NCBI GenBank assembly: GCA_035295545.1
Contig: DATGIT010000010.1
Span: forward strand, 76,513 to 140,512
Source of the DNA: Candidatus Binataceae bacterium
GTDB lineage: Bacteria; Desulfobacterota; Binatia; Binatales; Binataceae
DNA length: 64,000 nt
Direction of reading: 5' to 3'
Shown here: positions 5,094 to 29,738 of the stretch, piece by piece
Layout: the number at the start of each line of letters is the position of its first letter
Numbering within the stretch: position 1 is the first letter of the stretch
Position numbers and translations under genes: made by a program
Notes under the pieces: model-generated
What the model was told of the DNA's origin: nothing
What the model saw: the letters and a program-made list of their open reading frames with translations, nothing else
Database searches by the model: none

Positions 5094-6296
5094 TCAGAGC
5101 TTGTGACCGAAGTTGGCGCCCATCAGATACTCGTGTGCGCCGCGGATCGGCCGGCCCTCGCGCAGCCGCGCGAAACCGAACGGCCGCAGGTCAACGGTCT
5201 TTGCACTGCCGTCCACGATCAGTTCGGCCATCGCGGCGCCCACCGCCGGAGCGGTTTTGAAGCCGGTGCCGCTGAAGCCCGCCGCCGCAAACAGGCCATC
5301 GACGCCGGGCACGGGTCCCATCACGGCGCGCGAATCGGGGCTGACGTCGTAGATTCCGGCGTGTCCGCGCGAGTATCCGGCGCCTTCCAGGGCGGGCACG
5401 CGATGAGCCAGGCGTTCGGCGACTTCGGTCACAAAGTCGGCATCGTTGTCCTCGCGGAAGCTGTCGGGATCGGGCTCGTACTCGGCCTTGACGTCGCCGA
5501 GCCCGATCAGCGTCTCGGCGCCGCCCTGCGGACGGAAATAGCTTCCCGAGATCGTGTCGATACATCCGCAGTGGCGCAGGTCGGCGGGGCGCTTGAAGAA
5601 CGCGATCTGCGCCCGTTCGGCGCGAATCCCGATCGCCGCTCCCAGCGGCCGCAGCAGCCGATCGGTCCACGGGCCGGCGACGACGCAGACCGCATCCGCC
5701 GAATGACAAGCGCCGGCCGCGTCAATCGCGCCGCGCGCGCGTCCGCCCGAGGCATCTATCGCGGCGATCGGCGTGCTCAGCCTGAAGACCGCTCCCGCGC
5801 GGGACCCTGCCTCGGCCAGCGAGCGCGTGGTCGCCACCGGGTCGGCATAGCCGCTTTGCGGCTCGTAGGCGGCGAGCGCGACGTCGTTCACGTTCAGCGC
5901 CGGTTCAAGGCGATGAAGCTCGGCGGGCGCGACCGCCTCGGTATCGACGCCGAGCGCGCGCAGCATCGCGATATTCGCGCGCAGCCGCTCGAGGTTGGGC
6001 GGTCCAACCACGATTGCGAAGCCGGTGCGCACGAAACCGCAGCCGCGTCCTTCGGCGTCGCGTCCGACCATCTCTTCCCAATGGGCGAAGTAGCCGAGGC
6101 TCTTCCACGCGAGCTCGGCCTCGGGCGCGAACGTATAGTGCATCCTGAGCAGCGCTCCAGAGCGCGCCGACATCCCGGCGCACACCTGATCGCCCTTGTC
6201 GAACACGGTCACTCGCGCGCCCAGTCGCGCAAGATGCAGGGCCAGGCTGCATCCCACCACTCCCGCGCCAATCACGATAACCTGAGGCTTGTCCAT
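5094..6296 (-). CDS. FAD-dependent oxidoreductase, DAO family (glycine/sarcosine/D-amino-acid oxidase-like)
   Basis: N-terminal GxGxxG dinucleotide-binding fold (VIVIGAGVVGCSLALHLARLGARVTVFDKG). Overall DAO-like length and composition. Substrate is unknown. Confidence 0.75.
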   Translation of the reverse strand: MDKPQVIVIGAGVVGCSLALHLARLGARVTVFDKGDQVCAGMSARSGALLRMHYTFAPEAELAWKSLGYFAHWEEMVGRDAEGRGCGFVRTGFAIVVGPPNLERLRANIAMLRALGVDTEAVAPAELHRLEPALNVNDVALAAYEPQSGYADPVATTRSLAEAGSRAGAVFRLSTPIAAIDASGGRARGAIDAAGACHSADAVCVVAGPWTDRLLRPLGAAIGIRAERAQIAFFKRPADLRHCGCIDTISGSYFRPQGGAETLIGLGDVKAEYEPDPDSFREDNDADFVTEVAERLAHRVPALEGAGYSRGHAGIYDVSPDSRAVMGPVPGVDGLFAAAGFSGTGFKTAPAVGAAMAELIVDGSAKTVDLRPFGFARLREGRPIRGAHEYLMGANFGHKL

Positions 6297-6378
6297 CGAT
6301 TGCCGGCTGCGCGACGGACTTTTGTCCGCCGACCCGGTAGGCTAAGTTATTCGTTCGCCTTGGGCCTATCAAACCCGT

Positions 6379-7584
6379 ATGCGCATTTATCTCGACTATA
6401 ACGCCGGCGCGCCGCTGCGGCCCGAGGTGCGCGCCGCAATCGCCCGCCTGTGCGATGCGGATGCGGCGAACCCCGCCGCGGTCCATCATAGCGGCCAGCG
6501 CGCACGCCGCGCGCTCGAACAGGCGCGCGCCCAGGTGGCGCAGCTCATCGGCGCCGACCCGCGCGAGATCGTCTTCACCAGCGGCGGCACCGAATCGAAC
6601 AACCTCGCCATCGCGGGCGCCGCGCAGGCGCATCCCGCGCGCCGCATCGTCACTTCCGGCATCGAACATTCGTCGATTCTCGCGCCGCTCGAGGCTCTCG
6701 CGCGGCTCGGCCGCGAGGTAGTCTACGTCGCGCCGGATCGCGAGGGACGCATCGCACCCGAGGCCGTAGCCGACGCGCTCGACGCTCCCGCGTCGCTGGT
6801 CTCGATCGGGCTTGCCAATGCCGAGGTCGGCGCGGTGCAGGAAGCGGCTGCGATGGCCGAGCCGGCCGCGCGCGCAGGGGCGCTCTTTCATCTCGACGCC
6901 GCGCAGGCGGTCGGCCGCATCGCCGTGCGCGTGCGCGATCTGCGGTGCGACCTGATGACGCTTAGCGGTCACAAGCTGGGCGCGCCGGCGGGAATCGGCG
7001 CGCTGTACGTGCGCGACGGAGTCGCGATCGCGCCCGCGCTGCTGGGCGGTCCGCAGGAATCCGGGTTGCGCGCCGGGACGCCGAATCTGCTTGGCGCGGT
7101 CGCGCTCGGCGCGGCGGTCGAGGCCGTGTCTGCCGCGCTCGAGGAGGAATCGGCGCGTGTGGGCGCGCTCTCGGAGCGCCTGCTGGCTCTTCTGCGCGCC
7201 GCGATCCCGGGCTTGCGCCTCAACGGTCCGCGCTCGAACCGGGTTTCCAATACGCTCAATCTGACTTTCCCCGGCGTGCTCGGGGAGAGCATGCTGATCG
7301 CGCTCGATCTCGAGGGCGTCGAAGTTTCAATGGGTTCGGCGTGCGCGGCCGGCGCCGTCGAGCCGTCGCACGTGCTGCTGGCGATGGGCCTTGGGCGCGA
7401 GGCCGCGCGCAGTTCGCTGCGTGTGAGTCTCGGATGGAACACCCGCGCCGCCGACATCGAGCGCGCGGCGGAGATTATCGCGCGCGTATGGCGAAGGGTC
7501 AGGGCGGCCGAGCCGGCCGATAGCGATGCCGCCAACGGCGGCGGCTCGCGCGGCGCGGATAGCTCGGCGGAGGCGGCGCGATGA
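6379..7584 (+). CDS. Cysteine desulfurase (class V aminotransferase, IscS/NifS-like)
   Basis: PLP-lysine region SGHKLGAPAGIGALYVRDG and conserved C-terminal active-site cysteine loop (GSACAAG). Its stop overlaps the mnmA start, the classic sulfur-relay pairing. Confidence 0.85.
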   Translation: MRIYLDYNAGAPLRPEVRAAIARLCDADAANPAAVHHSGQRARRALEQARAQVAQLIGADPREIVFTSGGTESNNLAIAGAAQAHPARRIVTSGIEHSSILAPLEALARLGREVVYVAPDREGRIAPEAVADALDAPASLVSIGLANAEVGAVQEAAAMAEPAARAGALFHLDAAQAVGRIAVRVRDLRCDLMTLSGHKLGAPAGIGALYVRDGVAIAPALLGGPQESGLRAGTPNLLGAVALGAAVEAVSAALEEESARVGALSERLLALLRAAIPGLRLNGPRSNRVSNTLNLTFPGVLGESMLIALDLEGVEVSMGSACAAGAVEPSHVLLAMGLGREAARSSLRVSLGWNTRAADIERAAEIIARVWRRVRAAEPADSDAANGGGSRGADSSAEAAR

Positions 7585-8669
7585 GCGCGCGGGTGCTGGT
7601 CGCGATGTCCGGCGGCGTGGACAGCGCGGTCGCCGCCGCGATCCTGCGCGAACGCGGCTACGACGTGGTCGGCGTGGCGATGCGACTTGCGCCGGAGCCG
7701 GCGGCGGGCGCGCGCCGGCGCGCGTCCTGCTGCTCGGCCGATGACTTTGAAGATGCGCGCCGCGTAGCCGAGCGCATGGATTTCCCATTCTACGTGATCG
7801 ACATGCGGGCCGAATTCGGCGCGCGCGTGATCGACAATTTCGTTGCCGAATATCTGGCGGCGCGCACGCCCAACCCGTGTGTCATGTGCAATCGCGAGAT
7901 CAAGTTCGCGCGCCTGTTCGAGCGCGCCGCGGCGCTGGAGGCCGACTACGTGGCGACCGGCCATTACGCGCGCATCGAGCGCGACGCGCTCGGCCGCTAC
8001 CATCTGCTGCGCGCCGCCGATCCGGCCAAGGACCAGTCCTATTTTCTGTTCACGCTCGGGCAGCAGGAGCTTAAGCGCGCGCTCTTCCCGCTCGGCGCGA
8101 TGACCAAGGGCGAGGTGCGCGCGCGCGCCCGCGCGCTCGGGCTCGCCAACGCGGACAAGCCCGAGAGCCAGGAAATCTGCTTCGTCCCCGACGGCGACTA
8201 CGCGCGCTTCGTCGAACGCGCGGCGCCGGCCGAGCGCCTGCGCCGGGGCCGCATTGTCGACAGCGCGGGGCATACGCTGGCAACGCACGCCGGCGTGCAT
8301 CGTTTCACCGTGGGTCAGCGCCGCGGGCTCGGCGTGAGCGCGCCGGCGCCGCTCTACGTGCGCGAGATTCGAGCGCAAAGCGGCGAGGTAGTAGTCGCTC
8401 CGCGCGCCGGGCTCGGCGCGGCCGGGCTGCTCGCGTGCGATATCAGACTGGTTGATCCGGCCGCCGCCGGCGCCGCGCCGATCGCTATCGATGCGCGCAT
8501 CCGTTATCGGCATCCGACGCTGCCGGCGACGCTGGCGCTGGAGGAGCCCGGGCGCGCCCGCGTCACCTTCGTCAACCGCGAGGGGCCCGCGGTCACGCCC
8601 GGACAGGCATGCGTCTTTTACCGCGGCGATGAGGTCGTGGGCGGCGGCTTTATCGAGCGCGCGCTGTGA
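7581..8669 (+). CDS. mnmA: tRNA-specific 2-thiouridylase
   Basis: PP-loop SGGVDS, catalytic Cys motifs (CCSADDFEDARRVA; NPCVMCNREIKF). Length 362 aa. Confidence 0.9.
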   Translation: MSARVLVAMSGGVDSAVAAAILRERGYDVVGVAMRLAPEPAAGARRRASCCSADDFEDARRVAERMDFPFYVIDMRAEFGARVIDNFVAEYLAARTPNPCVMCNREIKFARLFERAAALEADYVATGHYARIERDALGRYHLLRAADPAKDQSYFLFTLGQQELKRALFPLGAMTKGEVRARARALGLANADKPESQEICFVPDGDYARFVERAAPAERLRRGRIVDSAGHTLATHAGVHRFTVGQRRGLGVSAPAPLYVREIRAQSGEVVVAPRAGLGAAGLLACDIRLVDPAAAGAAPIAIDARIRYRHPTLPATLALEEPGRARVTFVNREGPAVTPGQACVFYRGDEVVGGGFIERAL

Positions 8670-8679
8670 GGCCGGACTG

Positions 8680-10008
8680 ATGCGGTTTGCGATCGCCACG
8701 CTCGGATGCAAGGTCAACCAGTACGACTCGGCCATGATCGAGGCGCGGCTTGGCGCGCGCGGCATCGCGCGCTGCGATTTCGACCAGCCCGCCGACGTGT
8801 ACATCGTCAACACCTGCACCGTGACCGACCGCGCCGACGCGGAAAGCTTGCGCCTGGCGCGCCGCGCGCGCCGTCTTAATCCGCGCGCGCGGGTGGTGAT
8901 GACCGGATGCCTGGCGCAGGCCAATCCCGCGGCGCTGGCCGCCGCGCGCGAGGTCGACGCGGTGGTCGGACTCGGCCGCCCCGGCGATCTCGAGCGTGCC
9001 GTGCTGGGCGAAACGGCAGAGCGCGTGATGGTCGCGAATCTGCGCAAGGAGCGCGCCGCGATCGAGCTGGGCGCGGTGGCACTCGAGGGCCGCACGCGCG
9101 CGTTTCTCAAGCTGCAGGAGGGATGCGATCAGTTCTGCAGCTTCTGCATCGTCCCGACCTCGCGCGGAACCTCACGCAGCGTCGCACCCCGGCGCATCTT
9201 CGAGGCGCTCGACGGCCTTGCCGCCGCGGGCTTTCGCGAGGCGATCCTCACCGGCGTGCATCTCGGCGGTTACGGGCGCGACCTCGACCCGCCGGTCGGT
9301 CTCGAGCGGCTGCTCGAAATGATCGCCGAGCGCTCGCCGATCGGACGCATCCGCCTGAGCTCGCTCGATCCCGAGGAGCTGAGCGACGAAATTGTGCGCA
9401 TCGTCAGCGCCAGCGACAAGTTCTGCCCGCACCTGCATCTGCCGCTGCAGGCGGGCGACGACGCGACGCTGCGGCGGATGCGGCGGCGCTATGATGTTGC
9501 GCACTTCGCGGACCGGGTCGAGCGAATCCTGGCGGCGATGCCGTCGGCGGCGATCGGCACCGACTTGATCGCCGGCTTTCCGGGCGAGACCGCCCGCGAC
9601 TTCGACCGCTACTTTAATTTTGTCCAATCGCTTCCGCTTGCCTACTTTCACGTCTTCCCATACTCGGTGAGGGCGGGGACGACCGCAGCCAAGCTCCCAC
9701 GCAAAGTCGCGGCGGGAGAGATCAAGCGCCGGGCCGCGCTGCTGCGCGAGCTGGGCGAGGGCAAGCGCCGGCAGTTCGTCGAACGGTTTTGCGGATCGAC
9801 TCTTAAAGTATTGCTTGAAGAACGCGGCACGGATGGCAGGCTGAAGGGATACAGCCGCAACTATATCCGCGTGCTGGTGGAGGGCGGCGAATCACTTGCC
9901 AACGACGAAGTTGACGTGGTGGCATCGCGCCTCGAGGGCGCTGCCCTCGTTGCGCAGCTTGCTGCGCCCCCGGGCGGCCGCACCGCCGGCGCCATCGCCA
10001 CGATCTGA
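8680..10008 (+). CDS. MiaB-family radical-SAM methylthiotransferase (MtaB-like)
   Basis: ATG at 8680 (MRFAIATLGCKVNQYDS..., MTTase N-domain). Radical SAM CxxxCxxC (CSFCIVPTSRG). C-terminal TRAM-like region. The upstream part of the track ORF lies inside mnmA in another frame. Confidence 0.8.
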   Translation: MRFAIATLGCKVNQYDSAMIEARLGARGIARCDFDQPADVYIVNTCTVTDRADAESLRLARRARRLNPRARVVMTGCLAQANPAALAAAREVDAVVGLGRPGDLERAVLGETAERVMVANLRKERAAIELGAVALEGRTRAFLKLQEGCDQFCSFCIVPTSRGTSRSVAPRRIFEALDGLAAAGFREAILTGVHLGGYGRDLDPPVGLERLLEMIAERSPIGRIRLSSLDPEELSDEIVRIVSASDKFCPHLHLPLQAGDDATLRRMRRRYDVAHFADRVERILAAMPSAAIGTDLIAGFPGETARDFDRYFNFVQSLPLAYFHVFPYSVRAGTTAAKLPRKVAAGEIKRRAALLRELGEGKRRQFVERFCGSTLKVLLEERGTDGRLKGYSRNYIRVLVEGGESLANDEVDVVASRLEGAALVAQLAAPPGGRTAGAIATI

Positions 10009-10693
10009 AGAGCAGCGCGCCGAGCTCGAGCGGCGTCTCAATTACACTTTTCAGCGACCCGAGTTGCTGCGCATCGCGCTCACGCATCCGAGCGCCGTGG
10101 TCGGCGCCGAACTGCACTACGAACGGCTCGAGTTCCTGGGTGATGCGGTGCTCGACCTGGCGATCGCCGACCTGCTGATGCGACAGTTGCCCGAGGCCAA
10201 GGAGGGTGTGCTGTCGAAGGAGCGTGCGTCGATCGTCAACGGACGCACGCTGGCGGCCAAGGCGCAGGAGATCGGGCTCGGGCGCGCGCTCAGGCTGGGC
10301 AAGGGCGAGGAGAAAAGCGGCGGACGCGAGAAGGTATCCATCCTCGCGGCCTCGTTCGAGGCGGTGATCGGCGCGATCTATACCGATGCCGGCCTCGGGC
10401 CGGCGCAGCAGGTGGTCGAGGAGCTGTTCGCGGGCGATATCGGCGGCCCGTCGGCCGAGCGCGATTACAAGACCGAGCTGCAGGAGATCGCCTATCGCCG
10501 TTTTCGCAGCCAACCGGTGTACGAGCTGGTGTCCTCGCGCGGCCCGGATCACGCCAAGATGTTCACCACCCGCATTCGGATCGCCGGTCGCGACCTCGGC
10601 GTGGGCGAGGGCGGGAGCAAGAAGCAGAGCGAGCAGGCCGCGGCGCGCGCCGCGCTCGATCGCATCGAGAGTGAAAAGCATGGCGCTCGCTGA
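9896..10693 (+). CDS. rnc: Ribonuclease III
   Basis: RNase III signature ERRLNYTFQRPELLRIALTHPS and LEFLGDAVLDL catalytic motif, with a C-terminal dsRBD. Exact start is uncertain: the TTG at 9896 or a nearby alternative, overlapping the 3' end of the methylthiotransferase. Confidence 0.8.
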   Translation: MPTTKLTWWHRASRALPSLRSLLRPRAAAPPAPSPRSEEQRAELERRLNYTFQRPELLRIALTHPSAVVGAELHYERLEFLGDAVLDLAIADLLMRQLPEAKEGVLSKERASIVNGRTLAAKAQEIGLGRALRLGKGEEKSGGREKVSILAASFEAVIGAIYTDAGLGPAQQVVEELFAGDIGGPSAERDYKTELQEIAYRRFRSQPVYELVSSRGPDHAKMFTTRIRIAGRDLGVGEGGSKKQSEQAAARAALDRIESEKHGAR

Positions 10694-11576
10694 GCCGCAT
10701 CGCGCGGGGTTCGTCGCACTCGGCGGACGCACCAACGTCGGCAAATCGACCCTGCTCAACCGGATGGTCGGGCAGAAGGTTGCGATCGTCAGCCCGCGTC
10801 CGCAGACCACGCGCCGGCGCATCATGGGTATCCGGTCGGATCCCGACGCGCAGATCATCTTTCTCGATACCCCGGGATTGCATCGGCCGCGCACCGCGCT
10901 CGACCGGCACATGGTCGAAATCGCGCGCCGCAGCCTCGGCGAAGGCGAGATCGTGCTCGGCGTGGTCGAGGCGCGCGCGCCCCTTGCCGAAGGCGATCGC
11001 GAGTTTCTCGCCGAAATGCGCGAACTCAGGGCGCCGCGCGCGCTCGCGCTGAACAAGATCGATCGCGTTTCGCGCGCCGACCTGTTCGCCGCGGTCGCGC
11101 AATGCGGACGCGAGCTGCCCGAGGCCGAAGTCGTGCCGGTGAGCGCGCTGAAGGCGCACAATATCGACGAGCTGGTTGCCGTACTCAAGCGGATGCTGCC
11201 CGTGAGCCCGCCTCTGATGCCCGAGGACGAGTACACCGATCAGAGCGAACGGAGCATCGCCGGCGAGATCGTGCGCGAGAAGGTCTTCCGCGCGATGCGC
11301 GAGGAGGTCCCGTTCTCGACCGCGGTCACGGTCGAGAATTTCGTTGTCGAGGGGGAGGGTCCGCTCCTGCGCATCGAGGCGACGATCGTGGTGGCGCGCG
11401 AAGCGCACAAGGCGATGCTGATCGGCGCCGGCGGCCGGCAACTCAAGCGCATCGGCACGGCGGCGCGACTGGAACTCGAGAAGATTTTCGCCGCGCGCGT
11501 CTTCCTGCACTTGCTGGTCAGGGTCGAGAAGGACTGGACCCGCAATCCGCGTAAGATCGCGGAGCTCGGCCTGTGA
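10680..11576 (+). CDS. era: GTPase Era
   Basis: ATG at 10680 (MALAEPHRAGFVALGGRTNVGKSTLLN). G1-G4 GTPase motifs and C-terminal KH domain. Overlaps the rnc stop. rnc-era is a conserved pair. Confidence 0.9.
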   Translation: MALAEPHRAGFVALGGRTNVGKSTLLNRMVGQKVAIVSPRPQTTRRRIMGIRSDPDAQIIFLDTPGLHRPRTALDRHMVEIARRSLGEGEIVLGVVEARAPLAEGDREFLAEMRELRAPRALALNKIDRVSRADLFAAVAQCGRELPEAEVVPVSALKAHNIDELVAVLKRMLPVSPPLMPEDEYTDQSERSIAGEIVREKVFRAMREEVPFSTAVTVENFVVEGEGPLLRIEATIVVAREAHKAMLIGAGGRQLKRIGTAARLELEKIFAARVFLHLLVRVEKDWTRNPRKIAELGL

Positions 11577-13033
11577 CCGCGTTGCGCCGCGATCGCGGGC
11601 GCGCGGGCGCGCTCGCCGGCCTGCCCATGGGCGCGCCGCGCGTGGTGCTGGTCGGGCGCGCCAACGCCGGCAAATCGACCATGTTCAACCGCATCGCGCG
11701 CGGCCGGCGCGCGATCGTCAGCGCGATTGCCGGCACCACGCGCGACATCAACGTCGCGCCCGCCGAGCATCGCGGACGCGACTTCTTCATCGTCGACAGC
11801 GGCGGGCTCGAACTCGGCGGACGCGAACGCCTGAGCGAACGGGTCGTCGAAGGCGCGCTCGGCGCGGTTGCGCTCGCCGACCTCGTCGTTTTTGTCATCG
11901 ACGGCAGCGCCGGGCTCGCCCCCGGCGATCGCGAAGCGGTCGCGCTGATCCGCGAGACCGGACGTCCGATGATCGCCGCGGTCAACAAGATGGACCGCGC
12001 GGGTATGGAGTCGGCCGCGGCCGAATATTATGCGCTCGGCATCTCGCCGACGCTGCTCGTCTCGGGCGCCCACGGACGCGGCGTCGAAGAGCTGCTCGAC
12101 GAGGTCGTCGCGCGCCTGCCGCCGGCCGAAGCGGCGCCCCTGCGGCCTCCCGACCTGCGGCTTGCGCTGATCGGCCGGCCCAACGTCGGCAAGTCGTCGC
12201 TGCTCAACCGGCTGGCCGGCTTCGAGCGCGCAATCGTGGACATGACTCCCGGCACCACGCGCGATCCGGTCGACTTCCGGCTCGCTGCCGCCGACCGCGA
12301 TGTGCTGGTGGTCGATACTGCCGGAATCCGGCGACCGGCCCGGGTCGAGGGCGAACTGGAACATTCTTCGGTCGGCCGCGCGATCGAGACCGTTCGACGC
12401 GCCGATGTGCTCGTGCTGGTGGTCGATGCGACCGAGGGCGTCACCGACCAGGACGCGCGTCTGGCGAGCCTGGTCGAGCGCGAGGGGCGAGCGCTGGTCG
12501 TAGTGTGCAACAAGTGGGACCTCGCGGCCAGGGCGGGGCGGCGTATTGCCGCCTTCAAGCGCGATGCCGAGGCGATGGTGCCGTTCCTCGGTTTCGCCGA
12601 GATGTTGTTTACCTCGGCGCTGACCGGCGACGGCGTGGACGGCATCGTTCCGGCCGCGACCCGGGCGGCGGATTCATGGCGCGCGACCTTTCAGACTGCG
12701 CATCTCAACCGCATCCTCGCCGAGGCGAGCGCGGCGATGGATCCGCCGATGATCGAGCGCCGGCGGCTTAAGCTGATGTACGTGACGCAGGTTGGCCATG
12801 CGCCTCCGCGGCTCGCGTTCTTCGCCAACGTCGAGCGCGGCATCCCGGCGCACTACCTGCGCTTCCTCTCCGCGCGTTTTCGCGCGGCGCTCAAGCTCGT
12901 CGGCACGCCGCTCGTGCTCGAGTTCCGCCGCACGGGACGCACGTGGTCTGCGGGCGATGCGCGTGGCAACGCGCGATCCGGCGGAACAGGCGCGAGGACT
13001 CGCCGCGCGGCGCCGAAGAAATCAGGCAACTGA
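11573..13033 (+). CDS. der: Ribosome-associated GTPase Der (EngA), two tandem GTPase domains
   Basis: Two P-loops (GRANAGKST and GRPNVGKSS) and a C-terminal KH-like domain. GTG start overlaps the era stop (GTGA). Confidence 0.9.
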   Translation: MTALRRDRGRAGALAGLPMGAPRVVLVGRANAGKSTMFNRIARGRRAIVSAIAGTTRDINVAPAEHRGRDFFIVDSGGLELGGRERLSERVVEGALGAVALADLVVFVIDGSAGLAPGDREAVALIRETGRPMIAAVNKMDRAGMESAAAEYYALGISPTLLVSGAHGRGVEELLDEVVARLPPAEAAPLRPPDLRLALIGRPNVGKSSLLNRLAGFERAIVDMTPGTTRDPVDFRLAAADRDVLVVDTAGIRRPARVEGELEHSSVGRAIETVRRADVLVLVVDATEGVTDQDARLASLVEREGRALVVVCNKWDLAARAGRRIAAFKRDAEAMVPFLGFAEMLFTSALTGDGVDGIVPAATRAADSWRATFQTAHLNRILAEASAAMDPPMIERRRLKLMYVTQVGHAPPRLAFFANVERGIPAHYLRFLSARFRAALKLVGTPLVLEFRRTGRTWSAGDARGNARSGGTGARTRRAAPKKSGN

Positions 13034-13118
13034 CCCGAGGTCCGTTGCGGCTTCGTGCCGTGCGAGGAGCGCATCTTGCAGCGGTGCTTTCGATGTGAGA
13101 AATTTTTCTGTCCGGCGC

Positions 13119-13195
13119 GCGCCGTTAGCTCAGCGGATTAGAGCATCAGACTACGGATCTGAGGGTCGGGGGTTCAAATCCCTCACGGCGCGCCA
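13119..13195 (+). tRNA. tRNA-Arg (anticodon ACG)
   Basis: 77-nt cloverleaf read directly: acceptor GCGCCGT/ACGGCGC, D-arm GCTC...GAGC, anticodon stem TCAGA/TCTGA with loop CTACGGA (anticodon ACG), T-arm GGGGG-TTCAAAT-CCCTC, discriminator G and encoded CCA. Confidence 0.85.
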
Positions 13196-13899
13196 GTGCG
13201 TCAGCCATTTTCCAGCCTCCTGACCGAGCGACGCGTCGCCCGGCGTCACATAGTGCGCTTTGTGCTTTGACCTTTCGGGTGCTCCCTGAAACAGGTCAAA
13301 GTTGACGCCCTGGATCAGTATCGATCGCTTACCTGGATGATCTGCGTGCGACGGCGGCTCATGGCGGCGTCGGCGACGCCCTCCGGTCTCAGCTCTGGCC
13401 GGGTCAATGGGAAGGCAGCCAATCGCGCCTCGTTGGCGCCTCATTGAGGGGGGGCCGCTTTCAGTTTCATCATGGAACTAAAATTGCGGAAGAGCTGAGG
13501 CCATCGTTCGCGGTGGTTGCCGGCCGGACTCTACCCGGGTCCCCACTCGTGCGCTTCGGCGACCGTAGAGCAGCTTCCGAGCGTGAGATCCGGGGTCAGA
13601 GTTTTCCTCGTGGCGCGGCAGAATTCAGAGCAAATCAGCAAAATCACTGACCCAGAGAACGACGGCTCCGCTCGGGCTTGGACTTTTCGGGTCAGCCTGG
13701 GTTTGGTGTCTCAGAGTCTATTCTGCAATTCGTAGGCGACGTTTTGAGCTTCACTGCATTCTTTCAACAAAATAGGCGATATTTCCGGATATTTATTTTC
13801 AGAAAATAATGAAAATTCTGTGTACAGATTGATAAACAATAGAGTTGTAAAATGAAGTGAACATGAGCTATGAAAAACTGGTAAAGCTAAACTGGTCAG

Positions 13900-14094
13900 A
13901 TGATCGGCATTTCATGGATGCACAAGACCATGACAAAGTGTAAACAGAAGTCATTACATCAAAAAGATAAGATTAAGAAGGTCTGGCATAAACCGACGAT
14001 CTCCGACTACGGTCATGTGTCGGAGCTAACAGCCGGAACCGTCGGTTCGCACACGGACAAAGGGCACTGCTCGAATCATCATGGCGGCGGCTGA
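13900..14094 (+). CDS. Candidate RiPP precursor peptide with lasso-peptide-like leader and core (64 aa; alternative starts at 13918 and 13930)
   Basis: Sits in a roughly 400-bp AT-rich islet. Lys-rich leader ends ...KVWHKPTISDYGHVSELTA, which matches the lasso leader pattern (Y/W)-x-x-P-x-(L/I)-x3-G-x5-T-x. The predicted core GTVGSHTDKGHCSNHHGGG is 19 aa with Gly1 and Asp8. A 10-bp hairpin follows immediately. No B/C maturation genes are nearby, so the call is tentative. Confidence 0.4.
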   Translation: MIGISWMHKTMTKCKQKSLHQKDKIKKVWHKPTISDYGHVSELTAGTVGSHTDKGHCSNHHGGG

Positions 14095-14108
14095 GCCGCC
14101 ACATCGCA

Positions 14109-14134
14109 TCTCTCGATCAGGCTCGATCGAGAGA
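14109..14134 (+). terminator. Strong stem-loop (10-bp perfect stem TCTCTCGATC / GATCGAGAGA, 6-nt loop) 15 nt after the precursor stop; no U-tract
   Basis: Inverted repeat read directly from sequence. Comparable in position to the A-B intergenic hairpins of RiPP clusters that stabilise precursor mRNA, or a weak terminator. Coordinates are within about 1 nt. Confidence 0.4.
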
Positions 14135-14418
14135 CCGTGTCAGGGGCGCAAAAGTTCGATCGATCCGCGTTCGGCGAATGCGTATGTCCCGATGCGTATG
14201 TCTCGGGCGCGCGCGCTCGCGGTTGCAGGCTTGCGCGCGCGTGGCAACGGGTGCGTCGACCTGCCTCCAGGATGAGGCCCGTCGGAATGCATCGGCCGAG
14301 ACGCGCAAACGAGCGAAGCGGAAGACTCGATCCTTGATTGAAAATCGAGCTTGCGGATGTGGGCCGAGAAGCGAGCGGATGCGCGCTCCGGTCGTTTCGC
14401 GCTTCCTCCTCGCGGGCT

Positions 14419-15075
14419 TCAGAACATGCCCGGGGCCAACCGCCAGCGCACCCGTTGTCGGTAGGCCAGGTATTGCGGATCGCGAGCGAGCAATTCTTCC
14501 TCGAGCGCGATACGCCAGACCATGAACGGGATCGTGAGCGCCACCAACGCGACATTGCGGATGCTGGGGGCGGCTAGCGACGTACCCAATGCGCTCAGCA
14601 GCCAGGCCGCGTACACCGGATGGCGAATCATTCGAAAGGGACCGCGCACCACGAGGCCGCGGTTGGCCGGGAGCAATCCGAAACGACGGCCCAGGTAAAG
14701 CCATCCGATCAGCATCAGCGAGAGACCAGTCGCCTGAAGGATCACGCCGGTTGCCTCCAGCGTCGGCCAGTTCGTAGCGGTGAAGCGCGTCGCCGGGCGC
14801 ATCAGGAGCGGCAGCACCATCATCGCCGTCACCGAGACCAGCGCCTGGTAATCGGTTCGGGCTTCGCGCGGCGCCAGCCGCGTCAACGACAGCACGGCCA
14901 TCGTCAGCGCGGCGGCGGTCCAGATCCAGGCGGAGAGATTCGCGCGCCAGTCTTCCGACGTTGTCGACAGCAACTGCGGCCACCAGGGCACCAGAGTCGC
15001 CACGAACGTTGCCGCTACGCCAAGATTGGCCGCGGCGTGAAGCAGATGGGATTGGCGCGACCGGCCCGGCCTCAC
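14419..15075 (-). CDS. Isoprenylcysteine carboxyl methyltransferase (ICMT/PEMT) family membrane methyltransferase
   Basis: C-terminal ICMT-like motif region (GLVVRGPFRMIRHPVYAAWLLSALG...EEELLARDPQYLAYRQRV) preceded by hydrophobic TM segments. The track ORF extends to 15483, but that N-terminal extension is low-complexity and unlikely to be coding. Proposed GTG start near 15075. Start is uncertain. Confidence 0.55.
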   Translation of the reverse strand: MRPGRSRQSHLLHAAANLGVAATFVATLVPWWPQLLSTTSEDWRANLSAWIWTAAALTMAVLSLTRLAPREARTDYQALVSVTAMMVLPLLMRPATRFTATNWPTLEATGVILQATGLSLMLIGWLYLGRRFGLLPANRGLVVRGPFRMIRHPVYAAWLLSALGTSLAAPSIRNVALVALTIPFMVWRIALEEELLARDPQYLAYRQRVRWRLAPGMF

Positions 15076-21089: not shown

Positions 21090-22574
21090 ATGGATGCACA
21101 GCGGGCGGGCAGTGCGGTGCCCGGTTTGCAGGCAACGACAGCCGAGCCGCAGCCGCTCAACGAGATGTTCGACGCGCAGGGCCGCTCGCGGCCCGAGTGC
21201 GCGCGCGTCATCGCTTACCTGCTGGCGCTCGGACCGGGCAGGCTGGCGGAACTCGGCGAGCGCGCGCATCGCATGTTCCGCACGATGGGCGTGACGTTCA
21301 AGGTCTATGGCGATCATGAAGGCGGCGAACGCATCTTTCCCTTCGACCCGATCCCGCGCATTATTGCGGCTCCGGTCTGGGCCGAACTCGAAGCCGGCCT
21401 GATCCAACGCGCGCGGGCGCTGAACGCCTTCGTGGCCGACATCTATGCCGAGGCGCAAATCGTCAGGGACGGTGTCGTTCCGCGCGATCTCATAGTCGGT
21501 TCGCCGCAATTCCGCCATGCGGCGACCGGTATTCTGCCGCCGGGCGGCGTCTACATTACGGTTGCGGGAATCGACCTCGTGCGCGGCGCCGACAGCCGCT
21601 TCCATGTGCTCGAGGACAACGTGCGCACGCCCTCGGGCGTGTCGTACGTGATCGAGAACCGGCGCATCATGACGCGGCTGATGCCGGAGCTGATTCGCGG
21701 CCTGCGCGTCAGCAGCGTCGAGAACTATCCCGCCTACCTGCTCGCCGCGCTGCGCGAGATCGCGCCGTCCGGCATCGGCGACCCGACGGTGGCGCTGCTC
21801 ACGCCGGGCCCCTTCAATTCGGCGTTCTTCGAGCATGTGTTCCTGTCGCAGCAGATGGGCATCGAGCTGGTCGAGGGCCGCGACCTGGTCTGCGTCGATC
21901 ACAAGCTCTTCATGAAGACCGTGTACGGCCTTAAGCGGGTCGACGTGCTCTACCGCAGGATCGACGACGACTTTCTCGACCCGGTCGTGTTCCGTCCCGA
22001 TTCGATGCTGGGTGTTGCCGGTCTGACGGCCGTGCTGCGCGCGGGCAACGCGACGCTGGCCAACGCGATCGGCACCGGCGTCGCCGATGACAAGGCGGTT
22101 TACGCGTATACGCCGGCGATGATCCGTTACTACCTGGGCGAGTCCGCGCTGCTGCCGATTGTCGAGACCCATCTGTTGCGCGATCCCGACGTGCGGCAGA
22201 CGGTGCTGCGCGATCTCGATCGTTACGTGGTCAAACCCACCGGCGCCTCGGGCGGCTACGGCGTCGTCATCGGGCCCCGTGCGACGGACGAGGAGCTGGC
22301 GCAGGCGCGCAAACGGATCGAGGCCGCGCCGGCCGGTTTCATCGCCCAGCCGCTCTTTCCGCTCTCGGTGCATCCGACGCTCACCGGCGAGACGGTTGAC
22401 GGAAAGCCGGCGATGGCTTCGCGCCACGTCGATCTGCGGCCGTTCGTGCTGCTCGGGGCAAAGCCGCGCGTGCTCGCCGGCGGACTGACGCGGGTCGCGC
22501 TGCGCGAAGGATCGCTGATTGTGAACTCGTCGCAGGGCGGGGGCAGCAAAGATACCTGGGTGCTGGAGGAATAG
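21090..22574 (+). CDS. Circularly permuted ATP-grasp protein (COG2308/DUF404-type amidoligase)
   Basis: ATG at 21090 in frame with track ORF 20571..22574, about 494 aa. Characteristic length and gene neighbourhood. The upstream part of the track ORF overlaps the sirtuin. Confidence 0.75.
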   Translation: MDAQRAGSAVPGLQATTAEPQPLNEMFDAQGRSRPECARVIAYLLALGPGRLAELGERAHRMFRTMGVTFKVYGDHEGGERIFPFDPIPRIIAAPVWAELEAGLIQRARALNAFVADIYAEAQIVRDGVVPRDLIVGSPQFRHAATGILPPGGVYITVAGIDLVRGADSRFHVLEDNVRTPSGVSYVIENRRIMTRLMPELIRGLRVSSVENYPAYLLAALREIAPSGIGDPTVALLTPGPFNSAFFEHVFLSQQMGIELVEGRDLVCVDHKLFMKTVYGLKRVDVLYRRIDDDFLDPVVFRPDSMLGVAGLTAVLRAGNATLANAIGTGVADDKAVYAYTPAMIRYYLGESALLPIVETHLLRDPDVRQTVLRDLDRYVVKPTGASGGYGVVIGPRATDEELAQARKRIEAAPAGFIAQPLFPLSVHPTLTGETVDGKPAMASRHVDLRPFVLLGAKPRVLAGGLTRVALREGSLIVNSSQGGGSKDTWVLEE

Positions 22575-23518
22575 TGCTGCGGCGGATTGCGGGGTCGTTG
22601 TTCTGGGCGGCGCGTTATCTCGAACGCGCGCAATGGCGCGCGCGCCTGGTCGACGTCAACTACCATCTGCTGCTCGAGGTGCCGCCGCGCGACGCCGACC
22701 CCTGGGAGCCGCTGGTGCGGATCACCGCCGAGCACGACCTGTTCGCGGCCAAGCACAGCCACGCCGGCGAGACCGCGGTGATCGACTTCTTCGTCTTCGA
22801 TCGGGAGCACCGTTCTTCGATCCGCAGTTGCATCGAGGCGGTGCGGGCCAATCTGAGCCCGCTGCGCCATCTCATTTCCTCCGAGCTGTGGCTTGCGGTG
22901 AATCGGCTCTATCTCGAGGTCCAGGGATGGTCGGCGCAGACGCTGGCGGCCGGCGGCGTGTCGAATTTTTTTACCGAGCTCAAGCGGCACTTCTTTATGC
23001 TCGAGGGCATCGTTGCCCACACGATGCCGCGCGACCTGACGTACGACGTGATCGAGCTGGGCACGATGCTCGAGCGGCTCGACAACGTCTCGCGCCTCCT
23101 CGACGTGAAGTACCATTACCTGCTGCCGCGCCTCGAGGACATCGGCGGCCCGGCGGACCTGCGCCAGTGGGCCGCGGTGCTGCGCAGCGCGTCGGCCTTC
23201 GAGGCTTTTCGCCGATGCTACGGCAACGCCATCCGCGTGAACCGAGTGGTGGCGATCCTGGTCTTCGATCCGGAGTTTCCGCGCTCGATGCGCTTTTGCA
23301 TCGAACGCGCCGCGCAGGCGCTCGAGCGGATTTCAGTGCGGCAAGAGAGCTCGGCACCGTCCGCCGCCGCGCCCTGCGCGGAGCTGCTGGCGATACTGGG
23401 TCGGGGCGACGCCGATACGACCATCGAATCCGGATTGCACGAATTTCTGATCGACGCCGAGCGGCGATGCGCACAACTGGCCGACCGCGTGTTCGATCGC
23501 TACATGGCGCTGGAATAG
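22574..23518 (+). CDS. Alpha-E domain protein (COG2307/DUF403)
   Basis: Start overlaps the ATP-grasp stop (TAGTG). 314-aa all-alpha protein. Obligate partner of the circularly permuted ATP-grasp. Confidence 0.75.
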   Translation: MLRRIAGSLFWAARYLERAQWRARLVDVNYHLLLEVPPRDADPWEPLVRITAEHDLFAAKHSHAGETAVIDFFVFDREHRSSIRSCIEAVRANLSPLRHLISSELWLAVNRLYLEVQGWSAQTLAAGGVSNFFTELKRHFFMLEGIVAHTMPRDLTYDVIELGTMLERLDNVSRLLDVKYHYLLPRLEDIGGPADLRQWAAVLRSASAFEAFRRCYGNAIRVNRVVAILVFDPEFPRSMRFCIERAAQALERISVRQESSAPSAAAPCAELLAILGRGDADTTIESGLHEFLIDAERRCAQLADRVFDRYMALE

Positions 23519-23528
23519 GCTTTGGCCG

Positions 23529-24431
23529 ATGCTGGTGCGGATAAGCCATACCACCCGCTTCGTGTACGACGAGCCGGCCGCCGATTCGCACAACGACCTG
23601 CGGCTGCGTCCGCTCGACGACGCCGGCCAGCGCTGTCTCGAGTTCGAGCTGAGCGTCAGCCGGCCCGCCGCGGTGCTCGCGTACCGTGACTTCTTCGGCA
23701 ATGCGGCGCATTCGGTATCCGTCAGCGCTCCGCACCGCGAACTGACCATCGTGGCACGCTCGCTGGTCGACCGCGTGGACCCGCCGATGAAGCGTCATCC
23801 GGCGACGGCCTTCGATGACTTTCTTGCCGCCGACGACCGACATCTCAGGGATTTCTGCGAATTCCTCGGCGCCAGCCTTTACGTTCCGTTCAGCGAACGT
23901 CTGCAGCGGCTGTTCTGGATGGCGCGGCCGCGCGAGAGCGAGGACGTCGCCGGCTACGTGGCGCGAATCGTCGCCTGGGTCCGCGACCAGTTCGATTACC
24001 AGAAAGCGCGCACCCACGTTCACTCCAACCTGGACGACATCCTGAAAACCGGCAGCGGCGTATGCCAGGATTTTGCCCATCTCACCATTGGCATCCTGCG
24101 CCTGGCCGGAGTTCCCGCAAGGTACGTCTCCGGCTACCTGGCGCCGGCTACATCATCCGGCGGCGGCCCGTTGGGCGAACAGGCGAGCCATGCATGGCTC
24201 GAGGCATGGCTGCCGCATGCGGGATGGACCGGCTTCGATCCGACGCATCGCTACCGCACCGACGAGCGCCATATCCGGATGGCGGTCGGGCGCGATTACG
24301 GCGACGTGCCGCCGCTGCGCGGGATGTACCGGAGCAATGGAGCGAGCCAGGCAATGACGATCGATCTCAAGATCGAGCCCGCCGCCGCGGCCTGCGGCGT
24401 CGGCGCTGCGCCGGGCTGCCAGGCGCAATGA
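23529..24431 (+). CDS. Transglutaminase-like cysteine peptidase domain protein (COG1305)
   Basis: Catalytic Cys motif GVCQDFAHLTIGILRLAGVPARYVSGY and downstream His/Asp. Third member of the conserved triad. Confidence 0.8.
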   Translation: MLVRISHTTRFVYDEPAADSHNDLRLRPLDDAGQRCLEFELSVSRPAAVLAYRDFFGNAAHSVSVSAPHRELTIVARSLVDRVDPPMKRHPATAFDDFLAADDRHLRDFCEFLGASLYVPFSERLQRLFWMARPRESEDVAGYVARIVAWVRDQFDYQKARTHVHSNLDDILKTGSGVCQDFAHLTIGILRLAGVPARYVSGYLAPATSSGGGPLGEQASHAWLEAWLPHAGWTGFDPTHRYRTDERHIRMAVGRDYGDVPPLRGMYRSNGASQAMTIDLKIEPAAAACGVGAAPGCQAQ

Positions 24432-26921: not shown

Positions 26922-28286
26922 TCAGTGCAGATCGGGCGGCGTCATGCGCGCCAGCCATGCGCGATAATCGCCCGTGTAGCCGACCGCGCTCTGGCGCTCG
27001 CGCACGCGGCGCATCAGCGCCGCGAGCTGCTCGACGCCAAGCCGCGGCCGCGACTGCATCGAGTCGGCAATCCGCTCGCCCTGCCGCTCGGCCGTCTTGC
27101 GTGCGCCCGTCGCGAGCGGCACATCATCGTCGGACAGGCCCAGGTAGCTCTCGGCCACGTGGGTGCCGACGAAGGTCCCGCTCTCGAGCGAATCCTTGAT
27201 ATTGCCCTTGCCCGTCAGCACGTTGCCCGCCGCGTACACCGCTGTCGGACCGTTGTCGATGAGCCCGACCGAGGCGTCGATATAGGCATAGACCTCGCCC
27301 TTGGTGGGGATACCCGGAATCTGCTCCGGGATGCTGCCGATGGAGCTGATGAAAAGCGGCGCGCGTACCGGCGCCGCCGAGTTCGGAACGGTTCGCACCT
27401 GGCCGTCGGCGACCTCGGTGCGGCTCACCTGCAGGCCGGCGAGGCGGCCGTCCTCGACGATCAGTCCGGTCGGCACCCGCAGCGGTTCGAATTCGAACAG
27501 GTACTTGCGCTGCGCCTTTTCGAGGATTTTGGCGCGCGCCGCGCGCATCGCCTCGGCCCGCTTGGGCGGCGCATCCGGCGGAATATCCGATAGCGGCATG
27601 TCGAGGACGCGCCGGCGATAGAACAGCCTGCACGGCGCGACGCCGAGGTCCGCGTACTTGAGCCCGCGCGCCTGCAGCACGGGTTCGATGCCTTCGCGCT
27701 CCAGGCGCAGCATCTCCTCTTCGATTCCGCGCCGGCGCAGCGCCGTCAACGCGGTTTCGATCTGCAGCACCTTGACCACGTCGATCGAGGCGAGGCCGCC
27801 GCCGATCACGGCCGCGCCCGGCGGCAGATCGTAGCGCGGCCCGTCGTAGGTTTTTTCCGGATAATGATTGAACCAGTAGATGAGCCGGTTCTGATAGACC
27901 AGCCCGCGATCGATAAAGTCGTCGGCGCCTTCGACCGCCAGCGGCCGATCGCGCCACGCTCCGTGCGCGAGCACCAGGGCGCTCAGTCCCCAACGCTGGC
28001 GCAGGTCATCATAGCTGACGTCGGCGCCCATGCGGGTGAGCGGCACGAACTCGATATTGGGATGATCGAGGCGGCGGTTTATCTCCTCGTATTCGTCGCG
28101 CCGCTGCTTGACGTGCCAGCGTGGCAATCCGTCTTCGATCTTGCCGTAGGGACGCGGGTTCTGTTCGATTACGATCACCAGTGCGCCGCGCGCGGCGAGG
28201 ATGCGCGCGATTTCCGCGCCCGCGGTTGCGGCGCCCACGATCGCGACAGCGTGTCGCGGCGATTCTTTGCTCGTCGGTTCAGCCAT
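26922..28286 (-). CDS. NADPH-dependent FAD oxidoreductase, FprA/adrenodoxin-reductase-like
   Basis: Two dinucleotide-binding motifs (AIVGAATAGAEIARILAARGALVIVIEQ and AAVIGGGLASIDV). Size about 454 aa. Confidence 0.7.
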   Translation of the reverse strand: MAEPTSKESPRHAVAIVGAATAGAEIARILAARGALVIVIEQNPRPYGKIEDGLPRWHVKQRRDEYEEINRRLDHPNIEFVPLTRMGADVSYDDLRQRWGLSALVLAHGAWRDRPLAVEGADDFIDRGLVYQNRLIYWFNHYPEKTYDGPRYDLPPGAAVIGGGLASIDVVKVLQIETALTALRRRGIEEEMLRLEREGIEPVLQARGLKYADLGVAPCRLFYRRRVLDMPLSDIPPDAPPKRAEAMRAARAKILEKAQRKYLFEFEPLRVPTGLIVEDGRLAGLQVSRTEVADGQVRTVPNSAAPVRAPLFISSIGSIPEQIPGIPTKGEVYAYIDASVGLIDNGPTAVYAAGNVLTGKGNIKDSLESGTFVGTHVAESYLGLSDDDVPLATGARKTAERQGERIADSMQSRPRLGVEQLAALMRRVRERQSAVGYTGDYRAWLARMTPPDLH

Positions 28287-28488
28287 GGGGCGTGCATCTT
28301 ACCGTTAGGATGCAGTGTGGTAAAAGAGTTTCGAGCGTCGGCGAGGAATCCGCTATATTTTTGTAACACAACCTCGTCGCGGAGATGAACCCTCGCGATT
28401 CGATCGGCCGGCTGTCTTGCCTGCCGCCGAGGCTCATGGTTTTTTGTCTGCTGTAGGCATTGCGCCCACGCATCGGGAAAAATCTGCA

Positions 28489-29184
28489 ATGAAGGTGAAT
28501 CGTACGGCTGCCGGCAGGTGGGCGATTTGGATCGCCGTGTGCGTGCTCTCTTTGTTTGCCGGCTGTTACGCCGGAGTATGGGGAGAAAAGGAGCATTGGA
28601 GCACCGCCGACACCGCCTTGGGTGAAGAGCATGAGGTCAATTATTCGGCTCACGACGCTTATCTGCTGACTCAGGACGCGCTGCGCGGCGATGGCATTCT
28701 GTACGAGGTCGGACCGGACAACACCTTGCAGACGCTGTGGCGCAATGCCGATTACCAGGTCGGGCTCATGCAGAACCTGATGGGTGTGCAGCCGCGCTAC
28801 CGTTACGAAATTCAGGTCGTCCCCGAGGGCCCAAAAAAAAGCAAAATCGTGGTCAACGTCCACACCGAAGCCATCCCCGACAATCAGATCGCCGACTACA
28901 AGGCGAGCAAGCGCTTCGCGCTCTTCGGCGAAATCGACGAACTGGCCGCCAAATACCCGCCCGCTTCGACGACGCCGGCATCGGGTGGCGTCAATTTCAC
29001 ATTGCTGCCGAATGAAGACCTGAAAGGATTGGCGAAGCGGGTGACCGGCAACGAGGACAACTGGCGTCAGATCGCCAAGGACAACAGCCTGAATTCACCC
29101 ACCGATGTCACGCCCTTCCAGAGCATCTGGGTGGCCAACACCCTGCTCAAAAAGGCGCCCGACAAGGCCGCCTCGACCGACTGA
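28489..29184 (+). CDS. Putative lipoprotein with C-terminal LysM-like domain
   Basis: ATG at 28489 gives the signal MKVNRTAAGRWAIWIAVCVLSLFAGC (lipobox). The C-terminal DLKGLAKRVTGNEDNWRQIAKDNSL...IWVANTLL resembles LysM. Lower GC than surrounding genes. Confidence 0.5.
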   Translation: MKVNRTAAGRWAIWIAVCVLSLFAGCYAGVWGEKEHWSTADTALGEEHEVNYSAHDAYLLTQDALRGDGILYEVGPDNTLQTLWRNADYQVGLMQNLMGVQPRYRYEIQVVPEGPKKSKIVVNVHTEAIPDNQIADYKASKRFALFGEIDELAAKYPPASTTPASGGVNFTLLPNEDLKGLAKRVTGNEDNWRQIAKDNSLNSPTDVTPFQSIWVANTLLKKAPDKAASTD

Positions 29185-29267
29185 GAGCGGCGCTCGAAAG
29201 GTCCGCCTCGATTATGCTCCAGTCGCCGCTTCGGCAGGGGGAAATCGCGTGAAAGTGGAGAAGTGAT

Positions 29268-29621
29268 TCAGTCGCTGGTCTGGATGCCGTCGCCGGCGTC
29301 GTATTCCGGACAGAGGCCGTTTGGGCTGACGGCGGCAACCACCGTCAGGAACTGTTCGAACGTCATCTGCAGGTTGAGAAAGCCGCCCTGGCAGAAAACC
29401 CAGCCGTAATAGTCCAGGATTTCATCTGGGATCATCAGTGGCAGTCGCGGCAGACTCGATACGATCGGGAATCGACGGGGAGCATCCAAACGGGACAGGT
29501 TATCGTCTGCGTGGGAGCTCCCATCGATAATGACGTTGGTCTCGCGCAGAGCCACGAGGTTCGGCTTCCCAACATGGACAGCCGCTGCCCACGTCCCTGA
29601 CTTGCTCGCTGAAGCCACCAT
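29268..29621 (-). CDS. Hypothetical protein (117 aa)
   Basis: Good Shine-Dalgarno (AGGA) 5 nt upstream of the ATG. No recognisable domain. Lower-GC region. Confidence 0.4.
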   Translation of the reverse strand: MVASASKSGTWAAAVHVGKPNLVALRETNVIIDGSSHADDNLSRLDAPRRFPIVSSLPRLPLMIPDEILDYYGWVFCQGGFLNLQMTFEQFLTVVAAVSPNGLCPEYDAGDGIQTSD

Positions 29622-29738
29622 GTCATCCTATGCAGGTTTTGGCCGCTTGCCAAGGGTATCGGCCGAGTGCCGCCGTCTTATAACCAATCAGGACGTCAAT
29701 TGAAAATCGCGCGTCGGAGGCTAAATAGCTGAAAAATA

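Follow-up and report, generated by a model that had tools for sequence, protein, structure and literature searches.

Beside a tRNA-Arg gene in the uncultured Candidatus Binataceae bacterium, a stretch of 64,000 nucleotides of contig DATGIT010000010.1 (here called the window) contains a short islet of AT-rich DNA in otherwise GC-rich surroundings. Is this islet the debris of a horizontally acquired element, or does it belong to a gene? An initial annotation, made from the letters alone, took it to be probably a decayed island or a small acquired cassette, and named a strong AT-rich promoter region as an equal possibility. In our view the islet is likely to comprise the gene-proximal control region and the poorly conserved, lysine-rich N-terminal coding part of an orphan lasso-peptide precursor gene at 13930-14094 on the plus strand.

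Extent of the AT-rich islet

The lowest GC content of the window, measured in 300-bp windows, was 0.357 at 13701-14000. With the islet stretch excluded, the rest of the window had a mean of 0.664 (standard deviation 0.041) and a lowest value of 0.523, which places the islet about 7.5 standard deviations under the window mean and makes it the strongest GC drop of the window. In 200-bp windows, GC went from 0.62-0.63 (13400-13699) to 0.35 (13700-13899) and 0.345 (13800-13999) and returned to 0.60-0.65 past 14000, and the 50-bp minima of 0.26-0.30 all fell within 13750-13875. The sliding-window check thus bore out the GC drop that had been claimed, its position about 500 bp past the tRNA gene was correct, and the AT-rich run quoted at that time was located at 13797-13841. 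The extent given earlier, 13690-14060, does contain the dip but is too wide at its ends (14060 being slightly generous): the AT-rich core spans about 13720-13990, and GC is at least 0.60 again by 14000-14050. Within the islet, about 210 bp of non-coding DNA lead into the lysine-rich 5' half of a small open reading frame (ORF). The tRNA gene, the islet and the ORF are placed as follows.

13119-13195, plus strand: tRNA-Arg, anticodon ACG, the single tRNA located in the window by ARAGORN and Rfam (Rfam tRNA, 66 bits); it stands at the start of the region after der that is not syntenic with relatives.
13720-13929, plus strand: AT-rich core of the islet, putative promoter and 5' untranslated region (UTR) of the peptide gene (GC 0.26-0.42; similar blocks 5' of homologs).
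13930-14094, plus strand: ORF of 54 residues resembling lasso-peptide precursors (ORF list, homolog comparison, NCBIfam).

A conserved lasso-precursor gene

In-frame ATG codons of the peptide ORF are found at 13900, which gives the 64-residue form present in public databases, at 13918 and at 13930. From 13930 the product reads MTKCKQKSLHQKDKIKKVWHKPTISDYGHVSELTA followed by GTVGSHTDKGHCSNHHGGG, the predicted cleavage site lying between the two. Its parts, and the structures at its 3' end, are these.

13975-14034, plus strand: conserved part of the leader, KKVWHKPTISDYGHVSELTA, with the motif (W/Y)xxPx(L/I)xxxGxxxxxT and Thr at position -2 (family alignment).
14035-14091, plus strand: predicted core peptide, GTVGSHTDKGHCSNHHGGG, with Gly1 and Asp8 invariant in an alignment of 12 sequences.
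14082-14134, plus strand: two stem-loops over and just past the stop codon, at 14082-14101 and, with a perfect stem of 10 bp, at 14109-14134; no U-tract.

The leader residues run W19-H-K-P22-T-I24-S-D-Y-G28-H-V-S-E-L-T34-A35, with cleavage predicted before G36, and the core begins GTVGSHTD, with Gly first and Asp at position 8, within the pattern of lasso cores (Gly, Ala, Ser or Cys first; Asp or Glu at 7-9). A bond between Gly1 and Asp8 would give a macrolactam ring of 8 residues and a His-rich tail of 11 residues. GC is 0.42 in the leader and 0.63 in the core peptide, and the AT-rich part of the islet ends inside the ORF. Against the NCBIfam model NF033521 (lasso_leader_L3) the window ORF scored 17.9 bits, a narrow miss of the cut-off of 19, and against the rhodolasso model 15.5 bits (cut-off 30). 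Because its score falls just below the NCBI cut-off, it is annotated merely as hypothetical, and under that label the exact 64-residue protein is recorded for a Candidatus Binataceae metagenome-assembled genome (MAG).

An exhaustive HMMER search of 1.84 billion protein representatives returned 11 matches at E<1e-3, and a profile search returned 149 protein clusters, so that the family has at least that size. Its consensus is KKP(W/Y)xxPx(L/I/V)x(D/E)YGH(V/I)SKLTA in the leader, followed directly by GTTGSHTDKGHxANQHGxG in the core. Invariant among the 12 aligned members are a Pro (P22), a Gly (G28), the LTAG stretch (L33-T34-A35-G36) and, in the core, Gly1 and Asp8; all of them are intact in the window copy, in which the conserved leader-core part of 39 residues is whole. 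NF033521 was matched by 8 of the 12 (counted at E<=0.01) and lasso_cyano by 4. Several members are named by NCBI 'lasso RiPP family leader peptide-containing protein [Candidatus Binataceae bacterium]', every named member that was looked up carries the label Candidatus Binataceae, and the body of literature that was searched yielded nothing on lasso peptides in Binatia or Binatota.

A homolog in a different organism, found by a metagenome scan (L090/L091; loci fetched for comparison carry L numbers), is 78% identical over 41 residues. Across 42 aligned codons, the window and L091 shared 15 identical codons, 18 differed synonymously only and 9 non-synonymously, with 6, 6 and 22 nucleotide differences at the first, second and third codon position. 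Change is therefore mostly synonymous, which indicates purifying selection on the protein, and judged from this comparison the peptide ORF is a real conserved gene. The L090 and L091 contigs are otherwise near-identical but differ in a GTA repeat 5' of the homolog, with about 7 units in L090 (61-81) and 3 in L091 (1246-1254).

In five Binataceae contigs (L106 and L109-L112) a family member stands directly after genes for a Transglut_core3 protein and an Asn_synthase/GATase protein of 639-643 residues. One or two PqqD genes lie upstream, and a gene for a protein of 286-293 residues without Pfam match, NTP_transf_5 and an ABC transporter lie downstream; the proteins of the L106 cluster were checked by Pfam scan. 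The clusters occupy 1063-15105 in L106 and about 4700-14900 in L109-L112, and L110 contains two tandem precursors. In one Binataceae MAG the precursor and an 'asparagine synthase-related protein' likewise have consecutive NCBI accessions. The leader motif, the architecture of the core and the gene context show that the family is truly a lasso-precursor family. On its right flank the cluster has type IV secretion genes, VirB8/CagX in both L106 and L112 and also TrbI in L112, whereas L109-L111 have a gene resembling nonribosomal peptide synthetases there.

The window copy is an orphan, located outside any such cluster and without lasso maturation genes within the 64 kb. A tblastn search of the 64 kb with all L109 cluster proteins found the precursor itself and otherwise only unrelated luciferase and ABC paralogs, and a PP-loop motif scan for the cyclase over the same 64 kb found a single PP-loop ORF, MnmA-like, at 7608. 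Orphan placement is common in the family. No lasso enzymes were present within 10 kb on each side (less at contig ends) of the members in L097/98, L099/100, L101/102 and L103-105, and in L090 no long ORF follows over 5.3 kb downstream of the peptide gene. Between loci, the peptide ORF alone is conserved.

The AT-rich block upstream of family members

For each locus, the AT dip was measured as the lowest GC of any 100-bp stretch in the 260 nt that precede the start codon and expressed as z relative to that locus. The values were as follows.

Window, orphan copy: z -6.6
L103, orphan copy: z -4.3
L109, copy in cluster: z -3.9
L106, copy in cluster: z -3.8
L091, orphan copy: z -3.4
L095, orphan copy: z -3.0
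L094, contig of 612 bp: z -2.3
L099, orphan copy: z -2.0
L097, orphan copy: z -1.3
L101, orphan copy: z -0.8

In the clusters, the intergenic region between cyclase and precursor contains an AT-rich run that ends in TTGACT. Since the AT-rich block recurs in most family loci, the copies in clusters included, we take it to belong to the gene and not to island debris. The dip accompanies the gene in unrelated contexts and even within lasso clusters, and the earlier use of AT-richness as a sign of horizontally acquired DNA does not hold here; the alternative offered then, a strong AT-rich promoter region, fits best, with promoter function argued from position, composition and recurrence, since a consensus scan found no site in the window. 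One candidate element lies in the block.

13830-13835, plus strand: TTGATA, a putative -35-like hexamer, which shares a MAFFT alignment column with TTGATT (L091) and TTGACT (L095, L103) only.

A TTGAC(T/C) hexamer was also read by eye 5' of the gene in L094, L106 and L109, outside the shared alignment column. No good -10 element was found at standard spacing from TTGATA in the window; L103 has a sigma-70-like site, TTGACT-17-CATAGT, by consensus scan. A mini-ORF, ATG AAG TGA, occupies 13853-13861 of the AT-rich leader and has an aligned counterpart in L091 (about 1357-1374), ATG AAG AAA GAA AAA TAA. The upstream regions of the window and L091 align over a single short block, TAnAATGAAG, which is where the mini-ORF sits; this mini-ORF could be there by chance or be regulatory.

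At the other end of the gene, the hairpins past the stop codon, also found by a repeat finder, fold with -32.3 kcal/mol (z -3.65), and strong hairpins likewise follow the homologs in L091, L106 and L103. Such hairpins after the stop codon fit a short monocistronic transcript and probably form the 3' end of the mRNA or stabilise it. A terminator scan of 13000-14600 gave 4 terminator-like sites, all of which precede the islet or touch its left edge; none lies 3' of the ORF.

Taken as a working scheme, the AT-rich block would carry the precursor's own promoter, perhaps with an UP-like element, so that some 60-100 nt of 5' UTR would precede the coding part; the short monocistronic mRNA would be ended or stabilised by the hairpins. 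Any maturation of the peptide would take place in trans, through the enzymes of a lasso cluster located elsewhere in the genome. The leader would then be bound by a PqqD-type protein and cut behind Thr-Ala by the Transglut_core3 protease, and Gly1 would be linked to Asp8 by the cyclase.

Several observations weigh against the assignment of the islet to the control region of a working precursor gene. The dip is not universal in the family, being absent in the orphans L097 and L101 and weak in L099. A sigma-70 consensus scan of 13000-14600 found no promoter-like site in the islet, and the same scan found none for the copies in clusters, L103 alone being positive. No clear Shine-Dalgarno sequence precedes any of the starts at 13900, 13918 and 13930. 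Where its closest relatives start, the window copy has no start codon; its leader exceeds theirs by 10 residues, with an unconserved extra part, and its third-position GC of 0.59 is the family minimum (others 0.66-0.78). The window copy could therefore be poorly expressed or decaying.

Possible horizontal acquisition at the tRNA gene

The islet could alternatively be the remnant of an element acquired horizontally at or near tRNA-Arg, its AT-richness reflecting the composition of a foreign donor and the peptide gene being the surviving cargo. We regard this as unlikely, although its position and some of its relatives' positions speak for it. The region 5565-12976, which ends in era and der, is syntenic with all 34 related Binataceae species (loci L004-L036 and L081; comparison by tblastx with filters against high-GC noise), and in 34/34 species synteny is lost at the 3' end or stop codon of der (12976-13033). 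The islet is thus adjacent to a tRNA gene and at a synteny break. Within 6 kb downstream of der, none of the 34 relatives has a tRNA-Arg, ICMT or MFS gene, and no copy of the tRNA-Arg was present in any locus fetched. However, the relatives also differ from each other downstream of der, so that the loss of synteny is not peculiar to this genome, and the ICMT-like gene occurs in 3 other contexts in relatives, so that no empty site is definable. The synteny check along the der-tRNA-Arg-MFS run that the initial annotation had proposed was informative in showing where shared genes stop, but it cannot decide on an insertion.

A tRNA gene lies within 2.5 kb at 3/7 independent family loci.

Window: tRNA-Arg, at 705-735 bp, depending on the start codon.
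L095/L103: tRNA-Met, 156-175 bp downstream, convergent.
L099: tRNA-Leu, at 2.2 kb.

Under a rough assumed chance of 5% for a random site to be so near a tRNA, proximity at 3 or more of 7 loci has p of about 0.004, a post hoc figure from a small sample. In L097 (4734-20171) the gene lies between tRNA-Gln/tRNA-Glu and genes for HTH_17, a terminase and a 5'-3' exonuclease, a context that suggests a prophage-like or integrative element; the orphans of both L097 and L099 (10467-12394) adjoin HTH_17 (excisionase-like) genes. The peptide ORF being the sole item common to the family loci also favours acquisition, as does the third-position GC of the window ORF when set against about 0.85 in neighbouring genes.

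Other findings count against an acquired element. No integrase or recombinase is encoded among the genes at 14.4-39 kb, no remnant of one was found in the spacer by Pfam and PHROG, where no pseudogenes were detected either, and the last 23 or 32 nt of the tRNA, with up to 3 mismatches allowed, have no second match in the 64 kb; the earlier statement that neither an integrase nor a direct repeat of this 3' end is visible was correct, the search for att repeats having come back empty. The AT-rich block also stands 5' of the copies in the conserved lasso cluster, and a scan of IMG/VR viral contigs found no family member. At 0.63, GC in the conserved part of the ORF is close to that of the host, and the named members that were looked up are all labelled Binataceae, so that a low-GC foreign donor is not needed; the spread of the family suggests reshuffling within the lineage instead. 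As to the wording 'decayed island or small acquired cassette', the cassette is partly supported by the ORF that alone is shared and by the tRNA proximity at three loci, whereas the island is contradicted by the missing integrase and repeat and by the ordinary flanks.

Decay and RNA explanations

Less probable still is a reading in which the window copy is a duplicated precursor gene that has lost its function and is decaying, with the AT-richness due to mutational drift in unexpressed DNA. The absence of a Shine-Dalgarno sequence would agree with this, given that the copies in L091, L094, L097 and L106 have ribosome-binding sites of the GGAG/GGAGG type, and so would the absent family-position start codon, the lowest third-position GC of the family and the lack of cluster enzymes nearby. 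In a decaying copy, however, one would not expect a 39-residue leader-core part that retains every invariant residue, nor the strongly synonymous change relative to L091. The sequence is also identical or 99.9% identical in 3 independent short metagenome assemblies, and drift in a genome of 66% GC would not by itself make a sharply bounded block of 270 bp at 30% GC.

That the AT-rich stretch, instead of being simply a promoter, encodes a small regulatory RNA or serves as a cis-regulatory leader (riboswitch, attenuator) is very improbable: the proposed untranslated leader of 60-100 nt and the two-codon mini-ORF with its five-codon counterpart at the aligned place in L091 would suit it, but the best Rfam match, RAGATH-22, had 15.9 bits vs a gathering score of 120 with no match reaching threshold, and the upstream regions of homologs align over few bases only, so that no conserved RNA structure is supportable.

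Spacer and neighbouring genes

In the 1.2 kb that separate the tRNA from the following gene (13196-14418) no genome-typical coding signature was found, the small peptide ORF being the exception. Its first part is listed here.

13196-13719, no strand assigned: non-coding spacer without recognisable gene or RNA (GC about 0.62; no coding-type third-position GC; no Pfam, PHROG or Rfam match).

Third-position GC was 0.54-0.68 in all spacer ORFs vs about 0.85 in the neighbouring genes, and Pfam and PHROG scans of all spacer ORFs and of a stop-masked frame-1 translation found nothing. The two lines of evidence agree with the earlier view that these 1.2 kb are free of a convincing housekeeping gene. 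A faint codon-position GC periodicity in 13196-13650 matches no family. Rfam found nothing but the tRNA, over the whole window at gathering thresholds and over 13150-14500 at permissive thresholds, and a local repeat search gave chance-level pairs only, save for the hairpins after the ORF.

Three short metagenome contigs assembled independently from the same strain (L001-L003) have their left ends at 13467 or 13485 and their right ends at 14561-14645, so that assemblies break repeatedly on either side of the peptide cassette. A G7 run lies at about 13449-13455.

The flanking genes at 14.4-39 kb are ordinary. They encode, in the first part, an ICMT/PEMT-like methyltransferase, an MFS protein, a 2-hydroxyacid dehydrogenase, an MsrP-like protein, cytochrome b, GNAT and Sir2 proteins, and further on an ATP-grasp/Alpha-E/transglutaminase operon, a luciferase-like protein, SHMT, BacA, EamA, a DEAD helicase and desaturases.

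The ICMT/PEMT-like membrane methyltransferase gene (14419-15060, minus strand) adjoins the islet and has orthologs of 72-84% identity in L084, L085, L087 and L089. These occupy at least 3 unrelated gene contexts, one of them 33 bp after a tRNA-Val, and the gene is therefore unusable as a synteny anchor. An ORF call of 354 residues (to 15483) is probably over-extended, coding-type third-position GC being limited to about 14419-15000. A connection in function of the methyltransferase with the peptide was considered and rejected: none exists at other family loci, and an ORF of 74 residues beside the L087 ortholog is unrelated.

A conserved operon of three genes (21099-24431, plus strand) encodes CP_ATPgrasp_2 (a circularly permuted ATP-grasp), Alpha-E and transglutaminase-like proteins, a known system of the peptide-modification type whose function is unresolved. 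It is unrelated to lasso maturation because it contains neither Transglut_core3 nor Asn_synthase. The second-lowest GC patch of the window (28000-30000, GC 0.56-0.60) lies just upstream of bacA and contains two ORFs, 28417-29184 (plus strand) and 29268-29621 (minus strand), both without Pfam match.

Relation to known systems and significance

The window gene is best filed as an unannotated member of a lasso-precursor family in an uncommon stand-alone arrangement. Precursors of caulosegnin and astexin are examples of lasso precursors with a proteobacterial-type leader (NF033521). The family resembles them in its leader motif, (Y/W)xxPx(L/I)xxxGxxxxxTx, in a core with Gly first and Asp at position 8, and in homologs that lie beside genes for an Asn_synthase cyclase, Transglut_core3, PqqD and an ABC exporter. 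It differs in that the window copy stands alone in 64 kb with an HMM score just below the cut-off, in that the core is unusually conserved and His-rich, and in its host lineage, the uncultured Binataceae. A parallel in layout is offered by the prochlorosins, whose ProcA precursor genes are scattered in Prochlorococcus genomes and matured in trans by one enzyme set. In both systems one precursor family occupies many unrelated contexts away from the modifying enzymes; the prochlorosins, however, are lanthipeptides and not lasso peptides, ProcA-type cores are hypervariable whereas the cores here are conserved, and both processing in trans and the presence of orphan and cluster together in one genome are here proposals only. 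With tRNA-linked islands the locus shares a compositional anomaly by a tRNA at a synteny break, and some family members lie beside HTH_17 or phage-like genes. Unlike such islands, it lacks an integrase and an att repeat and comprises a single gene, and its 270-bp anomaly coincides with the 5' region of that gene.

We tentatively propose, as a possibility that we hold to be somewhat doubtful, that Binataceae carry dispersed stand-alone lasso precursors with their own AT-rich promoters, several of them by tRNAs, which would either be matured in trans by a single cluster or have a role independent of maturation, for example in His-rich metal binding or signalling. If true, this would be a layout of one cluster and many scattered precursors, which is not usually described for lasso peptides.

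For annotation, a striking anomaly on the side of a tRNA is most likely the 5' region of a real gene of 54 residues left as 'hypothetical', and not island debris. For natural-product mining, the family is so far a Binataceae-only lasso family with a conserved His-rich core and many precursors far from maturation enzymes, and mining tools centred on clusters would miss such orphans. Should these precursors undergo processing in trans, this uncultured soil lineage would have a larger repertoire of products than its clusters suggest.

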